64,000 nt of DNA. It comes from Akkermansia muciniphila (GTDB taxonomy: Bacteria > Verrucomicrobiota > Verrucomicrobiia > Methylacidiphilales > CAMAQI01). Both the position numbers and the translations under genes were made by a program. The stretch covers positions 2,088 through 66,087 of the forward strand of contig CAMCYL010000001.1 in the NCBI GenBank assembly GCA_945883905.1, written 5' to 3'. Positions 2,803 through 23,855 of the stretch are shown here, piece by piece. Each line of letters opens with the position of its first letter. Positions within the stretch are counted from its first letter, which is position 1. The notes under the pieces were generated by a model, which worked only from the letters and a program-made list of their open reading frames with translations, was not told where the DNA came from and searched no databases.

Positions 2803-3906
2803 TTATTTTTTCTTCGAGTAAAACGGTTTTTGAATAATCTCAATCGGGACCCGGGTTCCGCGTACTTCGAGATCGAGTTTGGTTCCGATGGTTTTGAAAT
2901 CGGAGTCTACATAGCCCATTCCGATGCCGATACCGAGCGTTGGGGATTGACTTCCGCTCGTGACCTCTCCGATTTTCCGATCGCCGGAGTAAATCGGATA
3001 ATGAGCACGAGGCGGGGCCGATTTTCCGATCGGTTTAAAGGCAATTAAGGTCGAGGGAATCCCTTTCTGAGCTTGAGAAATGAGGATTGATTTTCCGGGA
3101 TAGGAACTGGTTTTCGTCAAAGAGACAAATCGACCAAGATCGGCCTCTAAAGGGGTACGATCCGGAGAGAGATCGTTTCCATTCAAGGGATAACAGGATT
3201 CAAGTCGTAACGTATCTCGCGCTCCGAGACCGGTCGGTTTGAGTCCATCGGCTTTTCCGATTTCGAGGAGTGTCGTGAAGAGAGAGGAAACAGTTTCGGC
3301 AGAGATAAAGAGTTCAAATCCATCCTCTCCCGTGTAGCCAGTTCGTGCGATGAGGACTGTGTTCTGATTCCAGACGGTTTCAACGATGCGACTCCGTTTA
3401 GGAATTTCCAGATTTGGGATGAGGAGCTTAAGGATTTTCTCCGAAAGCGGACCTTGAAGGGCGACGGCGCCGTAGTCATCACTGGCGTTATCAAAGGAGA
3501 TTTTGGGTGGGAGATGTTTTTGAATCCAAAGGGCATCCTCTTCGATCATCGAGGCATTCACAACGAGAAAGTAACGATCAGCGGAGATGCGATAGATAAT
3601 TAAATCATCGATCACTCCCCCTTTTTCATTGAGGAGAAAGGTGTATTGTCCTTGTCCATCGACGATTTTTGAGAGGTCATTTGCGAGAATCGAGTTAAGG
3701 GCTTCGGTCGCCTCATTGCCTTGGATCCAGAATTCACCCATATGGGAGATATCAAAGAGCCCTGCGTGTTGGCGAACGGCCTGATGTTCATCGATGATTC
3801 CGCTGTATTGAACCGGCATGTACCAGCCTGCGAAATCGACCATGCGACCGCCAATGGATTCATGAGTTGCGGCAAGGGGAGTTTTTTGAGGAGTTGAGTT
3901 CGACAT
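2803..3906 (-). CDS. gcvT: Glycine cleavage system aminomethyltransferase (T protein)
   Basis: Translation ...GGRMVDFAGWYMPVQYSGIIDEHQAVRQHAGLFDISHMGEF... is classic GcvT. I place the start at ATG 3906 (MSNSTPQK), not the listed 3966, which would overlap galM. Confidence 0.9.
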   Translation of the reverse strand: MSNSTPQKTPLAATHESIGGRMVDFAGWYMPVQYSGIIDEHQAVRQHAGLFDISHMGEFWIQGNEATEALNSILANDLSKIVDGQGQYTFLLNEKGGVIDDLIIYRISADRYFLVVNASMIEEDALWIQKHLPPKISFDNASDDYGAVALQGPLSEKILKLLIPNLEIPKRSRIVETVWNQNTVLIARTGYTGEDGFELFISAETVSSLFTTLLEIGKADGLKPTGLGARDTLRLESCYPLNGNDLSPDRTPLEADLGRFVSLTKTSSYPGKSILISQAQKGIPSTLIAFKPIGKSAPPRAHYPIYSGDRKIGEVTSGSQSPTLGIGIGMGYVDSDFKTIGTKLDLEVRGTRVPIEIIQKPFYSKKK

Positions 3907-18125: not shown

Positions 18126-19661
18126 ATGAGTAAGATTGTCATTCTCGATTTCGGTTCACAGTTTACGCAGGTCATTGCCCGACGGATTCGGGAGTTGAAT
18201 GTCTTTTCCGAGATTGTTCATCATCATACCTCTTTAGAGAAAATTAAGGCGATGAAACCGAGTGGGATTATTCTCTCGGGGGGACCTGCAAGTGTTTACT
18301 CAGAAAAGGCCCCTCATCCGGATTTAGGGGTTTTTGAGCTTGGAGTGCCTGTTTTAGGGATCTGTTACGGGATGCAACTCATGGGATTTCATTTAAAGGG
18401 GGGGGTTCAAAAGTGCGATCGTCGTGAGTATGGACGGGGAACCTTGAAGGTTAAAAAAACAAACCCGTTGTTTACAGGACTTCCTCGTACCCTTGAGATA
18501 TGGAATAGTCATGGAGATCGACTCACTCGTTTGCCTAAAGGCTTTGAGGTGATTGCAGTGAGTGAAAACGCCCCTTATGCGGCGATTCAAGATTCGAAAC
18601 GGCAGTTTTTTGGATTACAGTTTCATCCTGAAGTTTCCCATACTCCTCGCGGAAAAGAGATTTTAAAGAATTTTGTGATTGGAGTTTGTAAGGCCAAGCC
18701 AGATTGGACAATGAAATCTTTCATTGATAAAACCTGCGCGGAGATTAAGCAAACGGTAGGGAAGGATCGTGTTATTTTGGGACTCAGTGGAGGCGTTGAT
18801 TCGAGCGTTGCAGCGGCTCTTTTGCATCGTGCGATTGGGAAGCAGTTGACCTGTATTTTTGTTGATAATGGATTGCTTCGTTTAGGAGAACGGGATGCCG
18901 TTCAAGGGTACTTTCAACGCGGTTTAGGCATTAAGTTAGTGACCGAACAGTCGGGGCCCCGTTTTCTTAAAAAGCTCAAAGGAGTCACCGATCCAGAGAA
19001 AAAAAGAAAGATCATTGGTGGAGAATTTATTCGGGTTTTTGAAGAGGCGATGAAGAAAGTGGGGCAAGCGAAGTATCTTGCTCAAGGGACCCTTTACCCG
19101 GATGTGATTGAGAGCGTGGCGATTGGGAACAATCCTGCCTCGGTGATTAAAAGTCATCATAATGTGGGAGGACTCCCCAAGAACATGAAGTTTAAATTGG
19201 TGGAGCCGCTTCGTCAGCTTTTTAAAGATGAAGTTCGCAAAGTGGGGGAGCAACTAGGATTGCCTGAGGAGATCGTTTGGAGGCAACCGTTCCCTGGACC
19301 GGGATTAGCCGTGCGTTGTCTTGGGGCTATTGAACCGGAGAAACTTGAAATTTTACGTAAAGCCGATGCCATTGTCATTGAGGAAATTAAGAAGGCGGGA
19401 TGGTATTATAAAGTTTGGCAATCCTTTGCGGTATTACTTCCAGTGAAGAGTGTGGGAGTGATGGGAGATGAAAGAACTTACGACTACACCATTGCACTTC
19501 GTTGCGTTGAAAGCCAAGATGGAATGACGGCGGATTGGGTTCGACTTCCTCAAGAATTACTCGGCAAGATCTCCTCTCGAATTATCAATGAGGTCCGCGG
19601 AGCGAATCGAGTGGTTTATGATATTAGCTCGAAGCCTCCTGCCACGATTGAGTGGGAATGA
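18126..19661 (+). CDS. guaA: GMP synthase (glutamine-hydrolysing)
   Basis: GATase ([14 protein letters not shown]) plus ATP-PPase (LSGGVDSSV) domains, and a C-terminal ...[10 protein letters not shown]. Start placed at ATG 18126 ([13 protein letters not shown]). Confidence 0.95.
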
Positions 19662-19706
19662 TTCGTTTGCGTTGAAGCGTTATCAAATTTGTCTCGATTT
19701 TTATCG

Positions 19707-19731
19707 GGAATAAATCATCGTTCTGCTGTCT
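19707..19731 (+). promoter_or_regulatory. Candidate ECF-type promoter upstream of the sigma gene
   Basis: GGAATAAA-N-TGTCTC (GGAAT 19707-19711, 16-nt spacer, GTCT 19728-19731). It is nearly identical to the motif at 21007-21030. The -10 element ends 3 nt before the ATG, which implies a leaderless or very short leader. Confidence 0.4.
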
Positions 19732-19734
19732 CAC

Positions 19735-20250
19735 ATGAATAATCAACATCCAGTGGAGTTTGAAAGCGTGGTCGAGACTTATTATTCATCCCTTTTTCGT
19801 TTCGGAATCAGTCTTTCAGGTCGAGAGTCTGACGCCTCTGATTTGACTCAGCAAACCTTTTTGATCTGGGCTCAAAAAGGAGATCAACTTCGGGATTTCT
19901 CAAAGGTAAAAACGTGGCTTTTTACTACTCTCTATCGGGAGTTTTTAAGATCGAGACGACGTGAGAAGAGTCATCCGAGTCAAAGTTTGGAGGAGATGGA
20001 GATTGAGTTGCCTGAGGTGACCGCTTCATCCTTTGAAGAGATGGATGGGGTGAAGGTTGTGGAGATTTTGAACGGTTTAGATCTGGTTTATCGTGAGCCT
20101 TTGACTCTTTTTTATTTAGAGGAGCTCTCTTATAAAGAGATTGCTGAGATTTTGGAAATCCCGATAGGAACCGTGATGTCTCGACTCGCACGGGGAAAGG
20201 GTTTGATGAGAAAGCGGTTGGAGAAAGATTTTAAGGGGGGAGAAGAATGA
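19735..20250 (+). CDS. ECF (group IV) RNA polymerase sigma factor
   Basis: 171 aa. Region 2 (DLTQQTFLIWAQK...WLFTTLYREF) and region 4 (LSYKEIAEILEIPIGTVMSRLARGK) are both present. Confidence 0.85.
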   Translation: MNNQHPVEFESVVETYYSSLFRFGISLSGRESDASDLTQQTFLIWAQKGDQLRDFSKVKTWLFTTLYREFLRSRRREKSHPSQSLEEMEIELPEVTASSFEEMDGVKVVEILNGLDLVYREPLTLFYLEELSYKEIAEILEIPIGTVMSRLARGKGLMRKRLEKDFKGGEE

Positions 20251-20999
20251 ACCGAGAGCAAATCATTGAGGTGCTTTTGTCGGTTCGTTCCCGCGAAGAG
20301 GGAAAAGGAGATCGAGTTGTTGAAGCTGCTTTTGAGCAGATGGATAAAGACCCAACCCTGAGAGCCATTTGGGAGGAGCAACGTCAATGGGATCAACTTT
20401 TTAAAAAATCGATTCATTCGATTGCAGTCCCGACCGATTTAAAGCAAAGAATCTTGGAGCAGAATCACTCTTCAGGGGATCAGATATCATCGATTATCCC
20501 TTTTCCTCGCTATTTATGGATTCCTTTAGCGGCTGCGGCCTTGGTGATTCTTAGTTTTATCTTTTTTAACTTTCAAGTAGAGAGTGAAAGTCGCGATTTT
20601 GCTCGTTTTGAGGAGAGGGCCGTTGATTATACGCAAGGCTTTTTTATGCTCTCAAAGAAAACAGGGCAACAAAGTGAAGTTCGGGAGTGGCTCAGGAGTC
20701 ATGGAGCTCCCCATTCATTTAAGATTCCCTTTCAAATTGAAGGACTCTCCCAATTGGGATGTCGTCAGGTGAAATTTTGTGGAATCTCCTCCTCGATGAT
20801 TTGTTTTGAAATTGAGGGGAAACATCAAGAGGTTCATCTTTTTATTGTGGATAAATCCCATCTCGAAAATTTACCCCCTTACGGCGTTCCGGAGGTTCTT
20901 CAGAAGAAGGGAAATGCAGTAGCGCGGTGGACCGATGACAATCATGGTTATATTTTAACGGGAGCGATTACCTTAGAGGAGATGAAATCTTTATTTTAA
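20247..20999 (+). CDS. Putative single-pass transmembrane anti-sigma factor
   Basis: ATGA-coupled to the sigma gene. It has an about 85-aa cytoplasmic N-terminus, one TM helix (YLWIPLAAAALVILSFIFFNF) and an about 140-aa extracytoplasmic domain with 3 Cys. No HxxxCxxC zinc motif. Confidence 0.55.
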   Translation: MNREQIIEVLLSVRSREEGKGDRVVEAAFEQMDKDPTLRAIWEEQRQWDQLFKKSIHSIAVPTDLKQRILEQNHSSGDQISSIIPFPRYLWIPLAAAALVILSFIFFNFQVESESRDFARFEERAVDYTQGFFMLSKKTGQQSEVREWLRSHGAPHSFKIPFQIEGLSQLGCRQVKFCGISSSMICFEIEGKHQEVHLFIVDKSHLENLPPYGVPEVLQKKGNAVARWTDDNHGYILTGAITLEEMKSLF

Positions 21000-21006
21000 T
21001 TATTTT

Positions 21007-21030
21007 GGAATAAAGCAATGGTTTGTGTCT
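21007..21030 (+). promoter_or_regulatory. Candidate ECF-type promoter upstream of the Cys-repeat peptide gene
   Basis: TGGAATAAAGCAATGGTTTGTGTCTCCC: GGAAT, 15-nt spacer, GTCT. It shares GGAATAAA and TGTCTC with the motif upstream of the sigma gene. Confidence 0.4.
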
Positions 21031-21095
21031 CCCAATTTTAGAACTGTTTGGGAATCCTCACAGTTTATTGAAAAAAATAAAACAAGGAGCAGATA

Positions 21096-21380
21096 ATGAC
21101 TAAAACGACACGTACAATGATTGCGGCTGCCGCCGTTGCAGGAATTTTAACTGGAATCTCGGTGAAAACAGCGAATGCAGGAGTTCTTGCTTCAACTGTT
21201 TTAGCGGATGAAAAAGCGAAATGTTCTGGTAAGGATGGGTGTCCTGCAAAAAAAGAGACTCCCGATAAAGATAAAAAAGAGAAACATGCTTGTAATGGTA
21301 AAGAGGGCTGTTCTGGAAAGAAGGAAAAGGAATCTTGCAGTGGCAAAGAGGGTTGCCCTGGTAAAAAAGATAAGAAATAA
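21096..21380 (+). CDS. Secreted Lys-rich peptide with three C-x5-C repeats, a candidate MNIO substrate (HvfA/bufferin-like)
   Basis: AAGGAG lies 6 nt upstream of the ATG. Sec signal MTKTTRTMIAAAAVAGILTGISVKTANA|G. The mature part carries KCSGKDGCPAKK / ACNGKEGCSGKK / SCSGKEGCPGKK. Confidence 0.7.
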   Translation: MTKTTRTMIAAAAVAGILTGISVKTANAGVLASTVLADEKAKCSGKDGCPAKKETPDKDKKEKHACNGKEGCSGKKEKESCSGKEGCPGKKDKK

Positions 21381-21660
21381 TTCTATCGATTTCTAAAGTT
21401 GCAATAAAGCGAGGGCACGGACTCAAGTGGCGTTCGTGGAGGACCTCATCGAAAATGAATCTCTTAGGAAGGCTGGAATTCAGGAAAAATTGATTTGAAT
21501 ATGGAATGGTATTCAATCCAAAATTCGGATTCTTTTTCCTGTTTTCTTGCTTTCCTAAGAGTTCTTTTTTGAATTCTATCATATCCTTTTAATCAATTTT
21601 TTATTGCAATAGAAAGCTCAGATTTTAATTGGAATCGATGAAGTTGATTTAAGATTCATC

Positions 21661-22530
21661 ATGCCTGCAAATCGTTTTAATAATTTCACTGAATACGAAA
21701 TCGGAATTGGACTTCGTGTTCCGCACTATGATCATATTTTATCGGAGCGACCAACCGTGGATTGGTTTGAGATTATTTCGGAGAATTACATGCAGGAGGG
21801 GGGGCGTCCTTTATCTGTTCTTGATCGCATTTTAGAGCAGTATCAGGTCGTTCAACATGGTGTTTCTCTTTATTTTGGCTCTAAGGATCCGTTGAATCGG
21901 ACTCATTTAAAGAAACTTAAAAAACTTTGTCAGCGCACAAAAACTCCGTGGCTTTCAGATCATTTATGCTGGGGAAGTGTGGATGGAACCTATTCTCACG
22001 ATCTTTTACCTCTTCCGTATACCTTAGAAGCGGCGAAGAATGCAGCGAAAAAAATTCGTGAGGTTCGTGACTTTTTAGAAATCCCTATTGCTGTCGAGAA
22101 TGTGAGTAGTTATGCTGAATTTCATTCTTCTGAAATGAATGAGTGGGAGTTTTTGACCGAGGTCGTCGAGCGGGCTGATTGTGGAATTCTATTGGATGTG
22201 AACAATATTTATGTCTCCTCGCAGAATCATACCTTTGATCCCAGAGATTATATTTTAGGAGTGCCTCATCATCGTGTAGCTCAGATGCATATCGCCGGAC
22301 ATTCTAAGTATGAACGATTTATTATTGATACCCATGATCATCCGGTCATCGACCCCGTTTGGGCTCTTTACGATTTAGCGATTCAAAAAGTGGGGCCGAC
22401 AGCGACGCTCTTAGAATGGGATGCTCGTATTCCCTCTTTTCAAGAGGTTCATGATGAGGCAAAGAAAGCGACTCGATATTGGAAAAGTCGAAAAAAGATT
22501 GCGCAAAAAAAACAGAAAAGAGGATCATGA
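21661..22530 (+). CDS. DUF692 / MNIO-family (MbnB/HvfB/BufB-like) iron-dependent peptide-modifying enzyme
   Basis: The full-length DUF692 pattern is present: IGIGLRVPHY, WFEIISENYM, QHGVSLYFGS, WLSDHLCW, LLPLPYT, AVENVSSY, LLDVNNIYVSSQNH, HIAGH, IDTHDHPV, LLEWD. Confidence 0.85.
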   Translation: MPANRFNNFTEYEIGIGLRVPHYDHILSERPTVDWFEIISENYMQEGGRPLSVLDRILEQYQVVQHGVSLYFGSKDPLNRTHLKKLKKLCQRTKTPWLSDHLCWGSVDGTYSHDLLPLPYTLEAAKNAAKKIREVRDFLEIPIAVENVSSYAEFHSSEMNEWEFLTEVVERADCGILLDVNNIYVSSQNHTFDPRDYILGVPHHRVAQMHIAGHSKYERFIIDTHDHPVIDPVWALYDLAIQKVGPTATLLEWDARIPSFQEVHDEAKKATRYWKSRKKIAQKKQKRGS

Positions 22531-23423
22531 ACTCCCTTGCTCAAATCCAAAAAGACTTTTTAAATTGCGTAAAATCTCCTTTGAATTCAAAAGATCGGAT
22601 TCAACTGAATCCGAAGGGGGTTCAATGGGTAAAGTCGGAGATGAAGCCGAATGATCGATTGAGTGGAGAGGCACGTATAGAGATCTATGCCCGACAATAT
22701 TGGTTTCGAATTTTAGAGTCCCTTTATGACGATTTTCCAGGATTAAGAGCGTTGATGGGGGATCTTGCCTTTGAGCGATTGATCCGAGAATATATCGAAA
22801 AATACCCCTCACGCTCCTATACCTTACGTGATTTTGGGAATCGATTGCCTGCTTATATTCTAAAAGAAAAAAAACGATATAAAACGAATTCAATCCTTTA
22901 TTTTCAAATGGCAACCATGGAGCTTGCTCAACTTCATGTTTTTGATGAAAAAGAGGAAAAGCCTTTGAGTTCAAAGAGTTTAGGGTCGAGACCTTTGAAT
23001 CGTCGTTTTCAGATTGCACCTCATGTTCGTTTGATGATTTTAGATTATCCGCTCGATGAATTGCAGTTAAAGTTAAATCAAGGCGGGGTTCGTGAGCAGT
23101 TGAGTAATGGGGTTTTAGATCGACGATTGAGAACTAAATGTCGATTGATCGTTGGAAAACTTCAAAAAGAAAAGGTTTTCCTAGCGGTGCATCGACATCA
23201 GTATCGGGTTTATTTCAAAAGAATGGAGCCTTGGGCATTTGAATTATTACAGAGTTTAGAATCGGGAAAACCGTTGGGGAAAGCGATCGAGATCGTGTTG
23301 AGTCAGAAGAAATATTTAAAGCAGGGAATTTCTGATCGTGTTGGAGATCAATTTCGAGAGTGGTCTGCCTTGGGGTGGATTCAAATATTAAAATCAAAAA
23401 CGACTTTCTTCAAGTCTCAGTAA
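22527..23423 (+). CDS. DUF2063 protein (HvfC/BufC-like partner of MNIO enzymes)
   Basis: ATGA overlap with the DUF692 stop. The N-terminus IQKDFLNCV...IEIYARQYWFRILESLYDDFPGLRALMGDLAFERLIREYIEKYPSRSYTL matches the DUF2063 pattern. Confidence 0.75.
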   Translation: MNSLAQIQKDFLNCVKSPLNSKDRIQLNPKGVQWVKSEMKPNDRLSGEARIEIYARQYWFRILESLYDDFPGLRALMGDLAFERLIREYIEKYPSRSYTLRDFGNRLPAYILKEKKRYKTNSILYFQMATMELAQLHVFDEKEEKPLSSKSLGSRPLNRRFQIAPHVRLMILDYPLDELQLKLNQGGVREQLSNGVLDRRLRTKCRLIVGKLQKEKVFLAVHRHQYRVYFKRMEPWAFELLQSLESGKPLGKAIEIVLSQKKYLKQGISDRVGDQFREWSALGWIQILKSKTTFFKSQ

Positions 23424-23855
23424 CGCTTTTTTAATTTTGAGTCCACCGGCATATCCAACAAGTTCTCCTTTTTGACCTAGGACGCGGTGACAAGGAACGA
23501 GGATCATCCATGGATTTTGATTACAGGCCCCTCCGACCGCTCTAGAGGCTTTTGGGGATTCGATGGTTTGAGCGATCTCTCCATAACTACGAGTTTCCCC
23601 GTAAGGAATTGATTGAAGAGTTTTCCAGACCTTTTGTTGAAAAACGGTTCCCTCTGAATTTAACGGAAGATCAAATTTTTTAAGATCCCCTTTGAAGTAT
23701 CGATCGAGTTGATGGATTGCTTCACGAAGGAGGGGGGAGGTCGGTGCCTCTGCTTTATTTTCTGAGAGAACAAATTGAACCGAGAGGATCGTTTGCGGTG
23801 TACCGAGGATTTGGATTCTTCCCAGAGGGGAGAGGAAGATTGCCGAAGCGATCAC
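23394..23855 (-). CDS. ogt: Methylated-DNA--protein-cysteine methyltransferase
   Basis: 153 aa with the active-site PCHRV and IPYGETRSYGEIA motifs. Confidence 0.9.
   Translation of the reverse strand: MIASAIFLSPLGRIQILGTPQTILSVQFVLSENKAEAPTSPLLREAIHQLDRYFKGDLKKFDLPLNSEGTVFQQKVWKTLQSIPYGETRSYGEIAQTIESPKASRAVGGACNQNPWMILVPCHRVLGQKGELVGYAGGLKIKKALLRLEESRF

Follow-up and report, generated by a model that had tools for sequence, protein, structure and literature searches.

A probable bufferin/captophorin-type operon whose precursor peptide reads as a remote, modular relative of BufA2

Here, we describe a small gene encoding a Cys- and Lys-rich peptide with a Sec-type signal, and the operon around it, in a window of 64,000 nucleotides (the whole stretch that was analyzed; positions 2,088 to 66,087 of contig CAMCYL010000001.1, assembly GCA_945883905.1, filed as Akkermansia muciniphila and placed by GTDB within the Methylacidiphilales of the Verrucomicrobiota). 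The genes run in the same direction, in the order extracytoplasmic function (ECF) sigma factor, a gene in the anti-sigma position, the precursor peptide, a 280-nt spacer, an MNIO enzyme, and a DUF2063 protein, and are followed by a convergent ogt gene. The features of the peptide and its putative maturation enzymes, in positions of the window, are as follows.

21096 to 21380, plus strand: precursor peptide gene, 94 amino acids plus stop codon (translation of the open reading frame [ORF])
21084 to 21089, plus strand: Shine-Dalgarno sequence AAGGAG, 6 nt before the ATG (read from the sequence)
21096 to 21179, plus strand: Sec-type signal peptide, residues 1 to 28, predicted cleavage between ANA and G (read from the sequence)
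21222 to 21254, plus strand: unit 1, CSGKDGCPAKK, Cys43/Cys49 (sequence, codon comparison, shuffles)
21291 to 21323, plus strand: unit 2, CNGKEGCSGKK, Cys66/Cys72 (sequence, codon comparison, hhalign alignment)
21336 to 21368, plus strand: unit 3, CSGKEGCPGKK, Cys81/Cys87 (sequence, codon comparison, shuffles)
21661 to 22530, plus strand: MNIO (DUF692) enzyme of the BufB type (NCBIfam NF050167, Pfam PF05114)
22527 to 23423, plus strand: DUF2063 partner of the BufC/HvfC/PME1 type, overlapping the MNIO stop codon in ATGA (Pfam PF09836)

The ORF at 21096 to 21380 (plus strand) translates as MTKTTRTMIAAAAVAGILTGISVKTANAGVLASTVLADEKAKCSGKDGCPAKKETPDKDKKEKHACNGKEGCSGKKEKESCSGKEGCPGKKDKK and is called as a gene on the same metagenomic contig (L001). 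Its signal peptide has K3 and R6 in the n-region and an h-region that coincides with the most hydrophobic 15-mer (residues 9 to 23, IAAAAVAGILTGISV), and A26-N27-A28 ahead of G29 is consistent with the -3/-1 rule by inspection of the sequence rather than by a predictor. The mature part of 66 residues holds 18 Lys (27%) and carries a net charge of +6; once past the opening nine residues (GVLASTVLA), its non-polar residues are limited to Ala, Gly, and Pro, a composition that suggests a flexible chain. The six Cys are separated by 5, 16, 5, 8, and 5 residues, so that three C-x5-C pairs are set apart by Lys/Glu/Asp linkers of 16 and 8 residues. A first-pass annotation of this DNA, made from the letters alone, had described the signal layout, the three units, and Cys at positions 43/49, 66/72, and 81/87, and all of these are found exactly so; its estimate of roughly 66 mature residues also holds, while the Lys content falls slightly below the approximately 30% it gave, and the His that it placed directly before the second repeat is His64, two residues ahead of Cys66 (H-A-C). 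A comparison of AlphaFold2 models, intended to contrast a disordered precursor with a folded BufA2, was dropped, as both models are equally poor (predicted local distance difference test score of 47.7 for the precursor and 47.9 for the BufA2 control, the latter from an alignment of only 2 sequences).

Two further observations concern the gene itself. Just past the predicted cleavage site, the segment GVLA(S/N)xV(L/M)A(D/E)EK (residues 29 to 40, positions 21180 to 21215) is near-invariant in the closest subfamily (P0001 to P0006), and other subfamilies have an unrelated segment in its place; it could be a candidate recognition element for the DUF2063 partner. On the minus strand, an ORF of 160 amino acids (21100 to 21582) spans the entire peptide gene and a downstream hairpin described below. 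As it has no family match context and the identical contig L001 carries no gene call for it, it is probably spurious.

The MNIO scores 354.5 bits against NCBIfam NF050167 (MNIO_BufB, the bufferin maturase equivalog; cut-off, 310) and matches Pfam PF05114 with an E value of 5e-109. It stays under the cut-offs of the NCBIfam HvfB, ApyH, ChrH, and MbnB models, with 264.6 bits against 360 for HvfB (NF003818) and 34.5 bits against 325 for MbnB. All motifs that align with the Haemophilus somnus structure PDB 3BWW are present (HG, DHL, VEN, DVNN, HIAGH, DTH, and LLEWD), and the catalytic and metal-ligand motifs are intact. The residue after the catalytic Asp is Ala in our MNIO (EWDA) versus Phe in 3BWW (ERDF), a Phe that we equate with FonB-Phe250 of an earlier study (PMC13097082). 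We considered covariation of this residue with peptide type and rejected it as a marker of specificity: it is Ala in the window, in the orthologous locus L006, and in 12 BufA2-associated enzymes, and Asp in L002, which has the same peptide type as the window. The DUF2063 partner, called as a 298-aa gene on L001, scores 61.7 bits against Pfam PF09836 (gathering score, 27.2), and its C-terminal domain, resembling a RiPP (ribosomally synthesized and posttranslationally modified peptide) recognition element, gives a weak match to NGO1945_C (E value, 0.008).

A genome scan with the MNIO recovers 80 loci at 72 to 79% identity in Acidobacteriota, Verrucomicrobiota, and Planctomycetota. Most of these loci, in 60-odd genomes, carry the classic BufA2 core ...EKHACKGQNSCKGKGGCKSSDNGCKGKNSCKGKGGC... 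directly upstream, and this core has the same C-x5-C hexad as the precursor units. BufB and BufC turn Cys into 5-thiooxazole, and bufferins are periplasmic, copper-binding, and Sec-exported (PMC11626156). Given that the MNIO passes the BufB cut-off and shares 72 to 79% identity with BufA2-associated enzymes, the same Cys-to-5-thiooxazole reaction is the default expectation; the suggestion in the first-pass annotation that the chemistry could differ finds no support in these data. In a midpoint-rooted neighbor-joining tree, built with no outgroup and with only six sequences, so that we draw no conclusion on clades, the enzymes of the precursor's peptide type form a basal grade outside the clade of BufA2 and hexad-array enzymes.

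Among the curated models of Pfam 2025 and NCBIfam 20.0, the peptide itself matches neither BufA2 (NF050166; cut-off, 60 bits) nor HvfA (NF050137 and NF050188) nor any Pfam model, DUF2282 of BufA1 included, at an E value of up to 1. Both HvfA models do respond to the published repeat, used as a positive control, and the BufA2 model gives 36.5 bits for an acidobacterial BufA2-like peptide and 43.9 bits for the hybrid peptide of locus L080. Weak matches to MAP_0585, collagen, and SclB were set aside as artefacts of composition. By profile alignment, a link to BufA2 is recovered: in hhalign, the Cys core aligns with the BufA2 core with a probability of 93% and an E value of 3e-7 (reversed control, 5%; shuffled control, 0.3%), pairing EKHAC-NGKEGC of the precursor with EKHAC-KGQNSC of BufA2, and a profile of the family retrieves BufA2 peptides at about 1e-7. 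The EKHA that precedes unit 2 matches the EKHAC start of the BufA2 core, and the h-region motif AAAVAG(I/L)(L/F)(T/A)G is common to the precursor and to BufA2-type peptides. On this evidence, the best reading of the precursor is as a remote, modular BufA2 relative. The first-pass annotation had taken the peptide for a substrate-like, non-canonical variant on the theme of HvfA-type and BufA2-type substrates. Its non-canonical standing is borne out by the lack of a match to any curated precursor model of Pfam or NCBIfam; the C-x5-C spacing, which it had read as a deviation, is that of BufA2 (C-x5-C-x5-C-x6-C-x5-C-x5-C, built from the C-x-G-K-x-x hexad), and the peptide, a remote relative of BufA2, is not HvfA-like, as there is neither a GKCG motif nor a C-x4-C pair.

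Peptides that combine the two architectures also exist. One or two C-x5-C pairs are fused to a full BufA2 domain in L080 (3635 to 3940), L029 (903 to 1262), L051, P0117, and P0128, with further hybrids in L090 to L093 and L102. The pairs, of the CSGKDGC or CKGKDGC type, lie N-terminal to the six-Cys BufA2 domain, except in L091, where they are C-terminal, and in L102 two BufA2 domains follow the pair. These hybrids look like evolutionary intermediates between the two architectures. In addition, contiguous hexad arrays of the form (CKGKDG)n with signal peptides are observed in Opitutales and others (L014, L020, L024, L042, L061, L065, L083 at approximately 3400 to 3900 and upstream of an MNIO, and L098 at 3339 to 3716), reaching 9 successive Cys in L065 and 13 in L098. 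These arrays are likewise unrecognized by the BufA2 hidden Markov model (HMM; E value of 0.54 for L014), and the MNIOs of these loci form one clade in the neighbor-joining tree.

A word-indexed search for relatives of the precursor returns 20 homologues, all with a similar signal peptide and at least one C-x-G-K-D/E-G-C pair, mostly two to four; just one of them carries a source name, a Verrucomicrobiota metagenome-assembled genome (MAG), in which it is entered as a "hypothetical protein." Among 1.84 billion representatives of public metagenomes, a 17-member profile finds 428 clusters (50% identity) at an E value of up to 1e-3, a number that also takes in BufA2 members and contiguous-hexad forms. 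The consensus of the unit over these matches, (E/D)-K-x-(S/A/G)-C-(S/K)-G-K-(D/N)-G-C-x-G-K-(D/K)-x, amounts to two C-x-G-K-x-x hexads. Across the family, neither Cys of the pair varies; the residue after the first Cys is mostly Ser or Lys, and the position after the second, with P, K, S, G, N, or E, is the most variable one in the unit. Most matches have one to three isolated pairs. The number of units differs even between near-identical peptides (four in P0002, three in P0005), and relatives that share the signal peptide have 4, 6, or 8 Cys. No Cys-Lys dyad is found in the precursor, whereas 82% of the Cys in BufA2-like peptides precede Lys; conversely, two Cys-Pro dyads (Cys49 and Cys87) occur in the precursor, and such dyads are conserved and are found in 28 of 152 family members versus none of 17 BufA2-like peptides.

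The gene order around the relatives examined is conserved. MNIO and then DUF2063 genes follow the precursor gene in 6/6 homologues looked up by exact protein, and in a pattern scan of metagenomes 11/11 signal-bearing peptides precede an MNIO gene, with a DUF2063 gene in six loci, which are all those long enough to show it. Altogether, the precursor gene has an MNIO gene directly downstream in 17/17 signal-bearing relatives examined. The first-pass annotation had made its reading depend on the repeats being conserved in orthologous loci, and by both homologue and locus look-ups they are. Four of the 15 pattern-scan loci (L099, L100, L101, and L103) have low-complexity CSGKEG runs with neither signal peptide nor MNIO and were treated as unrelated. 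Variants of the ends of the peptide are also seen. A twin-arginine-like n-region (SRREML, NRREF, SRRDF, or NRRQF) takes the place of the Sec-type one in P0014, P0121, L096 (337 to 858), L098 (3339 to 3716), and L102 (916 to 1368), and the MNIOs of the last three loci are more distant (approximately 48 to 51% identity); twin-arginine export would be unusual for the bufferin class, which is described as Sec-dependent. One subgroup shares a conserved hydrophobic C-terminal tail, EG(T/E/Q)I(L/I), which is found in P0015, P0017, P0018, P0020, P0021, P0033, P0034, P0045, and P0124, and the same motif also stands between units in P0015 and P0017.

The repeated units are unlikely products of composition or of recent copying. 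In 200,000 composition-preserving shuffles of the mature peptide, at least three C-x5-C pairs arise in 0.3% and even a single C.GK.GC in 0.2%, and a six-frame translation of the whole window restricts the unit motif to the precursor ORF. Most differences among the three units are synonymous codons, including TCT versus AGT for Ser; between units 2 and 3, 2 codons are identical, 7 differ synonymously, and 2 differ non-synonymously. In the L006 orthologue, compared across the initial 53 codons, 24 are identical, 22 are synonymous, and 7 are non-synonymous. As the differences are mostly synonymous both between units and between orthologues, we conclude that the peptide sequence is under purifying selection and that a recent DNA duplication or a chance ORF is excluded.

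Taking together the curated BufB cut-off, the DUF2063 partner, the A-B-C gene order, and the homology to BufA2, we consider it highly probable that the locus is a RiPP operon of the bufferin/captophorin type (the MNIO-PME1 class) with the precursor as its "A" gene. Upstream of this gene and in the spacer behind it, we observe the following features, all on the plus strand.

19707 to 19732, plus strand: ECF-type promoter-like motif GGAATAAA-N13-GTCTC before the sigma gene (motif scan), putative in function
19735 to 20250, plus strand: ECF-family sigma-70 factor (Pfam Sigma70_r2 and Sigma70_r4_2, NCBIfam TIGR02937)
20247 to 20999, plus strand: putative single-pass anti-sigma factor, 250 amino acids, whose start overlaps the sigma stop codon (ATGA); role suggested by position
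21007 to 21031, plus strand: second promoter-like motif of the ECF type, GGAATAAA-N12-GTCTC, 65 nt ahead of the precursor ATG (motif scan)
21452 to 21570, plus strand: long imperfect hairpin (arms 21452 to 21489 and 21533 to 21570) followed by a T-run, between the precursor and MNIO genes

The sigma factor scores 66.4 bits against TIGR02937 (cut-off, 42.9). The putative anti-sigma factor has a single hydrophobic segment (residues 89 to 107) and only weakly matches DUF3379 (E value of 2.4e-4, short of the gathering score) and an anti-sigma-E model; an orthologue of it, also of 250 amino acids, adjoins the sigma gene in L005 and L006. The two promoter-like motifs, which we take to resemble ECF promoters, are the only matches to GGAATAAA-N10-15-GTCTC in the 64 kb, where 0.01 would be expected by chance, and they lie before the sigma gene and before the peptide gene; both copies are kept in the orthologous L005, and a relaxed form, GGAATAAA-N10-16-KTCT, is found upstream of the precursor genes in L002 to L006. 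The -10-like GTCTC stops 3 nt before the ATG of the longest sigma ORF both in the window (19707 to 19770) and in L005 (4615 to 4680), and in L005 the sigma gene is called from an in-frame GTG 11 codons further downstream. Its true start therefore probably lies downstream of that ATG, which would make the sigma factor shorter than the ORF of 171 amino acids, or else its mRNA is leaderless. We also observe that TTGGAATAAAGCAATGG (21005 to 21021), which holds the -35-like element, has an 82% direct-repeat copy, TTGCAATAAAGCGAGGG, at 21399 to 21415, just past the peptide gene. This copy may have arisen by chance, or it may serve the enzyme genes as a degenerate second promoter.

The spacer between the precursor and MNIO genes folds much better than its shuffles (z scores of -4.9 and -7.2 in two analyses). 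Strong hairpins, unrelated in sequence, follow the precursor gene in 5/5 other loci checked. The hairpin sequence is unique within the window and lacks sequence conservation in L006, and Rfam gives no match in 19500 to 23600. The hairpin is probably an attenuating terminator or an mRNA-stabilizing stem.

From these elements, a plausible course of events can be proposed, in which the regulation, the modification and the Cys that receive it, the metal, and the stoichiometry are all inferred. The ECF sigma factor, freed from its membrane anti-sigma factor under envelope or metal stress, would drive the GGAATAAA...GTCTC promoter, and the hairpin after the peptide gene would allow the precursor to be made in excess of the enzymes. 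In the cytoplasm, the MNIO-DUF2063 complex would oxidize the cysteines of C-x-G-K-x-G-C to 5-thiooxazoles, each with a loss of 4 Da, before Sec exports the peptide and signal peptidase cuts after ANA. The resulting Lys-rich periplasmic peptide would be a string of independent copper sites of two thiooxazoles each, binding approximately one Cu per pair and thus approximately three per peptide. Copper capacity would then be set by the number of units, with which the stoichiometry may scale.

Several precedents underlie this proposal. The Caulobacter bufferins belong to an ECF (SigF) regulon (PMC11626156). HvfA has three pairs of modified Cys, with approximately one Cu(I) bound by each pair (PMC11252979). 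The HvfA modification was later reassigned to 5-thiooxazole and the class given the name captophorins, and two Cys repeats are the minimal substrate of FonBC (PMC13097082). All characterized MNIO-PME1 systems make 5-thiooxazole (PMC13097082).

Among the known systems, BufA2 (BUF_6/12Cys, NF050166, the "Cys-Lys" captophorins, founded on Caulobacter vibrioides CCNA_03001) is the closest. It has the same Sec signal with an AAxAGLxAG h-region, the C-x-G-K-x-x hexad, the C-x5-C spacing, six Cys, and the EKHAC entry motif that here precedes unit 2, and its loci share the A-B-C order, the absence of DoxX, and the BufB-type MNIO. However, BufA2 forms one compact C5C5C-x6-C5C5C domain with a fixed number of 6 or 12 Cys, whereas the precursor has three separate pairs and its relatives have 2 to 4 or more units; the precursor also differs in its dyads, in its silence against the BufA2 HMM, and in its ECF sigma/anti-sigma pair, which is reported for Buf1 and not for Buf2 clusters (PMC12452194). 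The HvfA/oxazolin, fontiphorin, and gonophorin peptides (Buf_EGKCG, the "Lys-Cys" captophorins, NF050137 and NF050188) resemble the precursor in Sec export, repeats, and richness in Lys, Glu, and Gly, and in an operon that also pairs an MNIO with a DUF2063 partner (PMC11252979, PMC13097082). In them, too, the Cys pair is the functional unit, with approximately one Cu per pair and a minimum of two repeats for FonBC, and HvfA has three pairs as does the precursor. Yet their spacing is C-x4-C, the precursor lacks EGKCG, KCG, and GKCG and any match to the HvfA models, its MNIO falls short of the HvfB equivalog cut-off, and it has Pro after Cys, which FonBC rejects.

Other systems share the operon logic more than the peptide. 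BufA1 (DUF2282) is alike in operon logic, enzyme class, control by an ECF sigma/anti-sigma pair, and a periplasmic copper-binding product (PMC11626156), but BufA1 is small, has four Cys, and is predicted to be a folded protein, and the anti-sigma factor of our locus is single-pass and not NrsF. In Antoine et al. 2025 (PMC12452194, Table S2), the "CxxxxC" group and the signal-peptide precursors left unclassified are likewise small, Cys-containing ORFs with a Sec signal directly before MNIOs of the large bufferin cluster; the "CxxxxC" group has C-x4-C, in contrast to C-x5-C here. Finally, in the methanobactin system (MbnA/MbnB/MbnC), an MNIO-family enzyme turns Cys into a copper-binding heterocycle with a sulfur ligand, as we propose here, but the product is an oxazolone/thioamide, the leader peptide is not a Sec signal, the role is copper acquisition, and the MbnB model is far from matched.

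A number of observations weigh against the assignment to the bufferin/captophorin class as drawn above, or against parts of it. The precursor matches no curated precursor model of Pfam or NCBIfam, the DUF2063 partner reaches 45 bits against the NCBIfam HvfC model, short of its cut-off of 142, and neither DoxX nor a metal-resistance gene is found among the neighboring ORFs and genes scanned around the precursor locus. The anti-sigma factor is unlike NrsF in the family search, and sigma/anti-sigma genes have been reported in Buf1 rather than Buf2 clusters (PMC12452194). Above all, modification of all six Cys is not guaranteed, and which Cys are modified is the main uncertainty. The outer Cys of Buf1 and Buf2 are unmodified and form disulfides (PMC11626156), FonBC tolerates neither Pro in the repeat nor large residues after Cys (PMC13097082), and half of the Cys contexts of the precursor, with no Cys-Lys dyads and two Cys-Pro dyads, are unlike any tested.

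Partial modification is therefore a serious possibility, although we hold it short of likely: the first Cys of each pair, with Ser or Asn after it, would become a thiooxazole and the second, with Pro or Ser after it, would stay a thiol or form a disulfide, giving a mixed thiooxazole/thiolate site whose metal stoichiometry or preference would depart from that of HvfA-type pairs. The unmodified flanking Cys of Buf1 and Buf2 (PMC11626156) and the rejection of Pro and favoring of small residues following Cys by FonBC (PMC13097082) speak for such an outcome, as does the contrast within the unit between a first Cys followed mostly by Ser or Lys and a second followed by the most variable position. 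That both Cys are invariant across the family and that both halves of the unit are the same C-x-G-K-x-x hexad speak against it, as do the four central Cys of BufA2, which have the same spacing and are all modified (PMC11626156), and HvfA and FonA, in which every repeat Cys is modified. A departure in the chemistry itself, such that the MNIO installs something other than 5-thiooxazole or the product handles a non-copper metal or stress, appears improbable. The reactions of the MNIO superfamily are diverse, and for some bufferin clusters there is a link with mercury or with other metals (PMC12452194); the anti-sigma sensor belongs to an uncharacterized type, and the Ala of EWDA differs from the Asp typical of Cys-Lys-type MNIOs (PMC13097082). 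But EWDA also occurs in 12 BufA2-associated enzymes while the CSGKDGC-type locus L002 has EWDD, hence there is no covariation, and the BufB equivalog score, the high identity to BufA2-associated enzymes, and the uniform 5-thiooxazole product of characterized MNIO-PME1 pairs (PMC13097082) all favor the known reaction.

Least probable, in our view, is that the peptide is an unmodified, metallothionein-like or redox-buffering molecule with an incidental MNIO neighbor, or that the ORF is unexpressed. Unmodified HvfA does bind 2 to 3 Cu(I) (PMC11252979), and a sizeable share of Buf1 and Buf2 precursor genes lie away from any MNIO gene (PMC12452194). Against this stand the 17/17 signal-bearing relatives directly upstream of an MNIO, the strong ribosome-binding site, and the excess of synonymous changes in the L006 orthologue (22 versus 7), and the sole sizeable competing ORF is the antisense one that is not called as a gene on the same contig.

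The system is thus a clear member of the known bufferin/captophorin class, and its novelty is one of architecture, not of category: modular pairs, a tunable number of units, Cys-Pro contexts, and an ECF module that differs in type. Hundreds of Sec-signal ORFs with 1 to 18 Cys upstream of bufferin-cluster MNIOs remain unclassified (PMC12452194). The strings CSGKDGC, GKDGC, and CSGKEGC do not occur in the portion of that study's supplement text that was accessible, and neither the searchable literature nor the available supplement text of PMC13097082 contains the same or related motif strings. A literature search for Cx5C with MNIO returned unrelated papers only, and a paper on DUF692 in Antarctic soil has as its subject a proteobacterial six-Cys (BufA2) peptide unlike the precursor. 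A bolder claim, which we offer tentatively and consider rather unlikely to hold in full, is that separated C-x-G-K-x-G-C pairs on a flexible Lys-rich chain constitute a fourth, unnamed precursor architecture for thiooxazole metallophores, with tunable copper capacity and broader enzyme tolerance. If it is true, copper capacity would be tuned by the gain and loss of units, and the MNIO would tolerate Cys-Ser and Cys-Pro contexts rejected by the enzymes studied so far.

Two routes to 5-thiooxazole have been proposed, one of them via an azetidinone that needs the amide N-H after the Cys (PMC13097082). As this route needs the N-H of the following residue, a converted Cys before Pro would exclude it for these enzymes, and the Cys-Pro dyads would thus be natural probes between the two routes. 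Curated models leave the precursor and its relatives as "hypothetical protein," and with a simple model of the C-x-G-K-x-G-C pair, a sizeable number of precursors could be named. Relatives with a named organism, for the peptide homologue as well as for related MNIO loci, are mainly Verrucomicrobiota, and the self-contained module of ECF sigma factor, anti-sigma factor, and precursor, with its recognizable promoter, would provide a handle on the inducing stress outside Pseudomonadota. At the level of the family, closely related enzymes serve a graded series of precursors that has the compact BufA2 domain at one end and separated pairs at the other, with hybrids and contiguous hexad arrays in between. 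This series shows how a folded metallophore protein can turn into a repeat peptide and vice versa.

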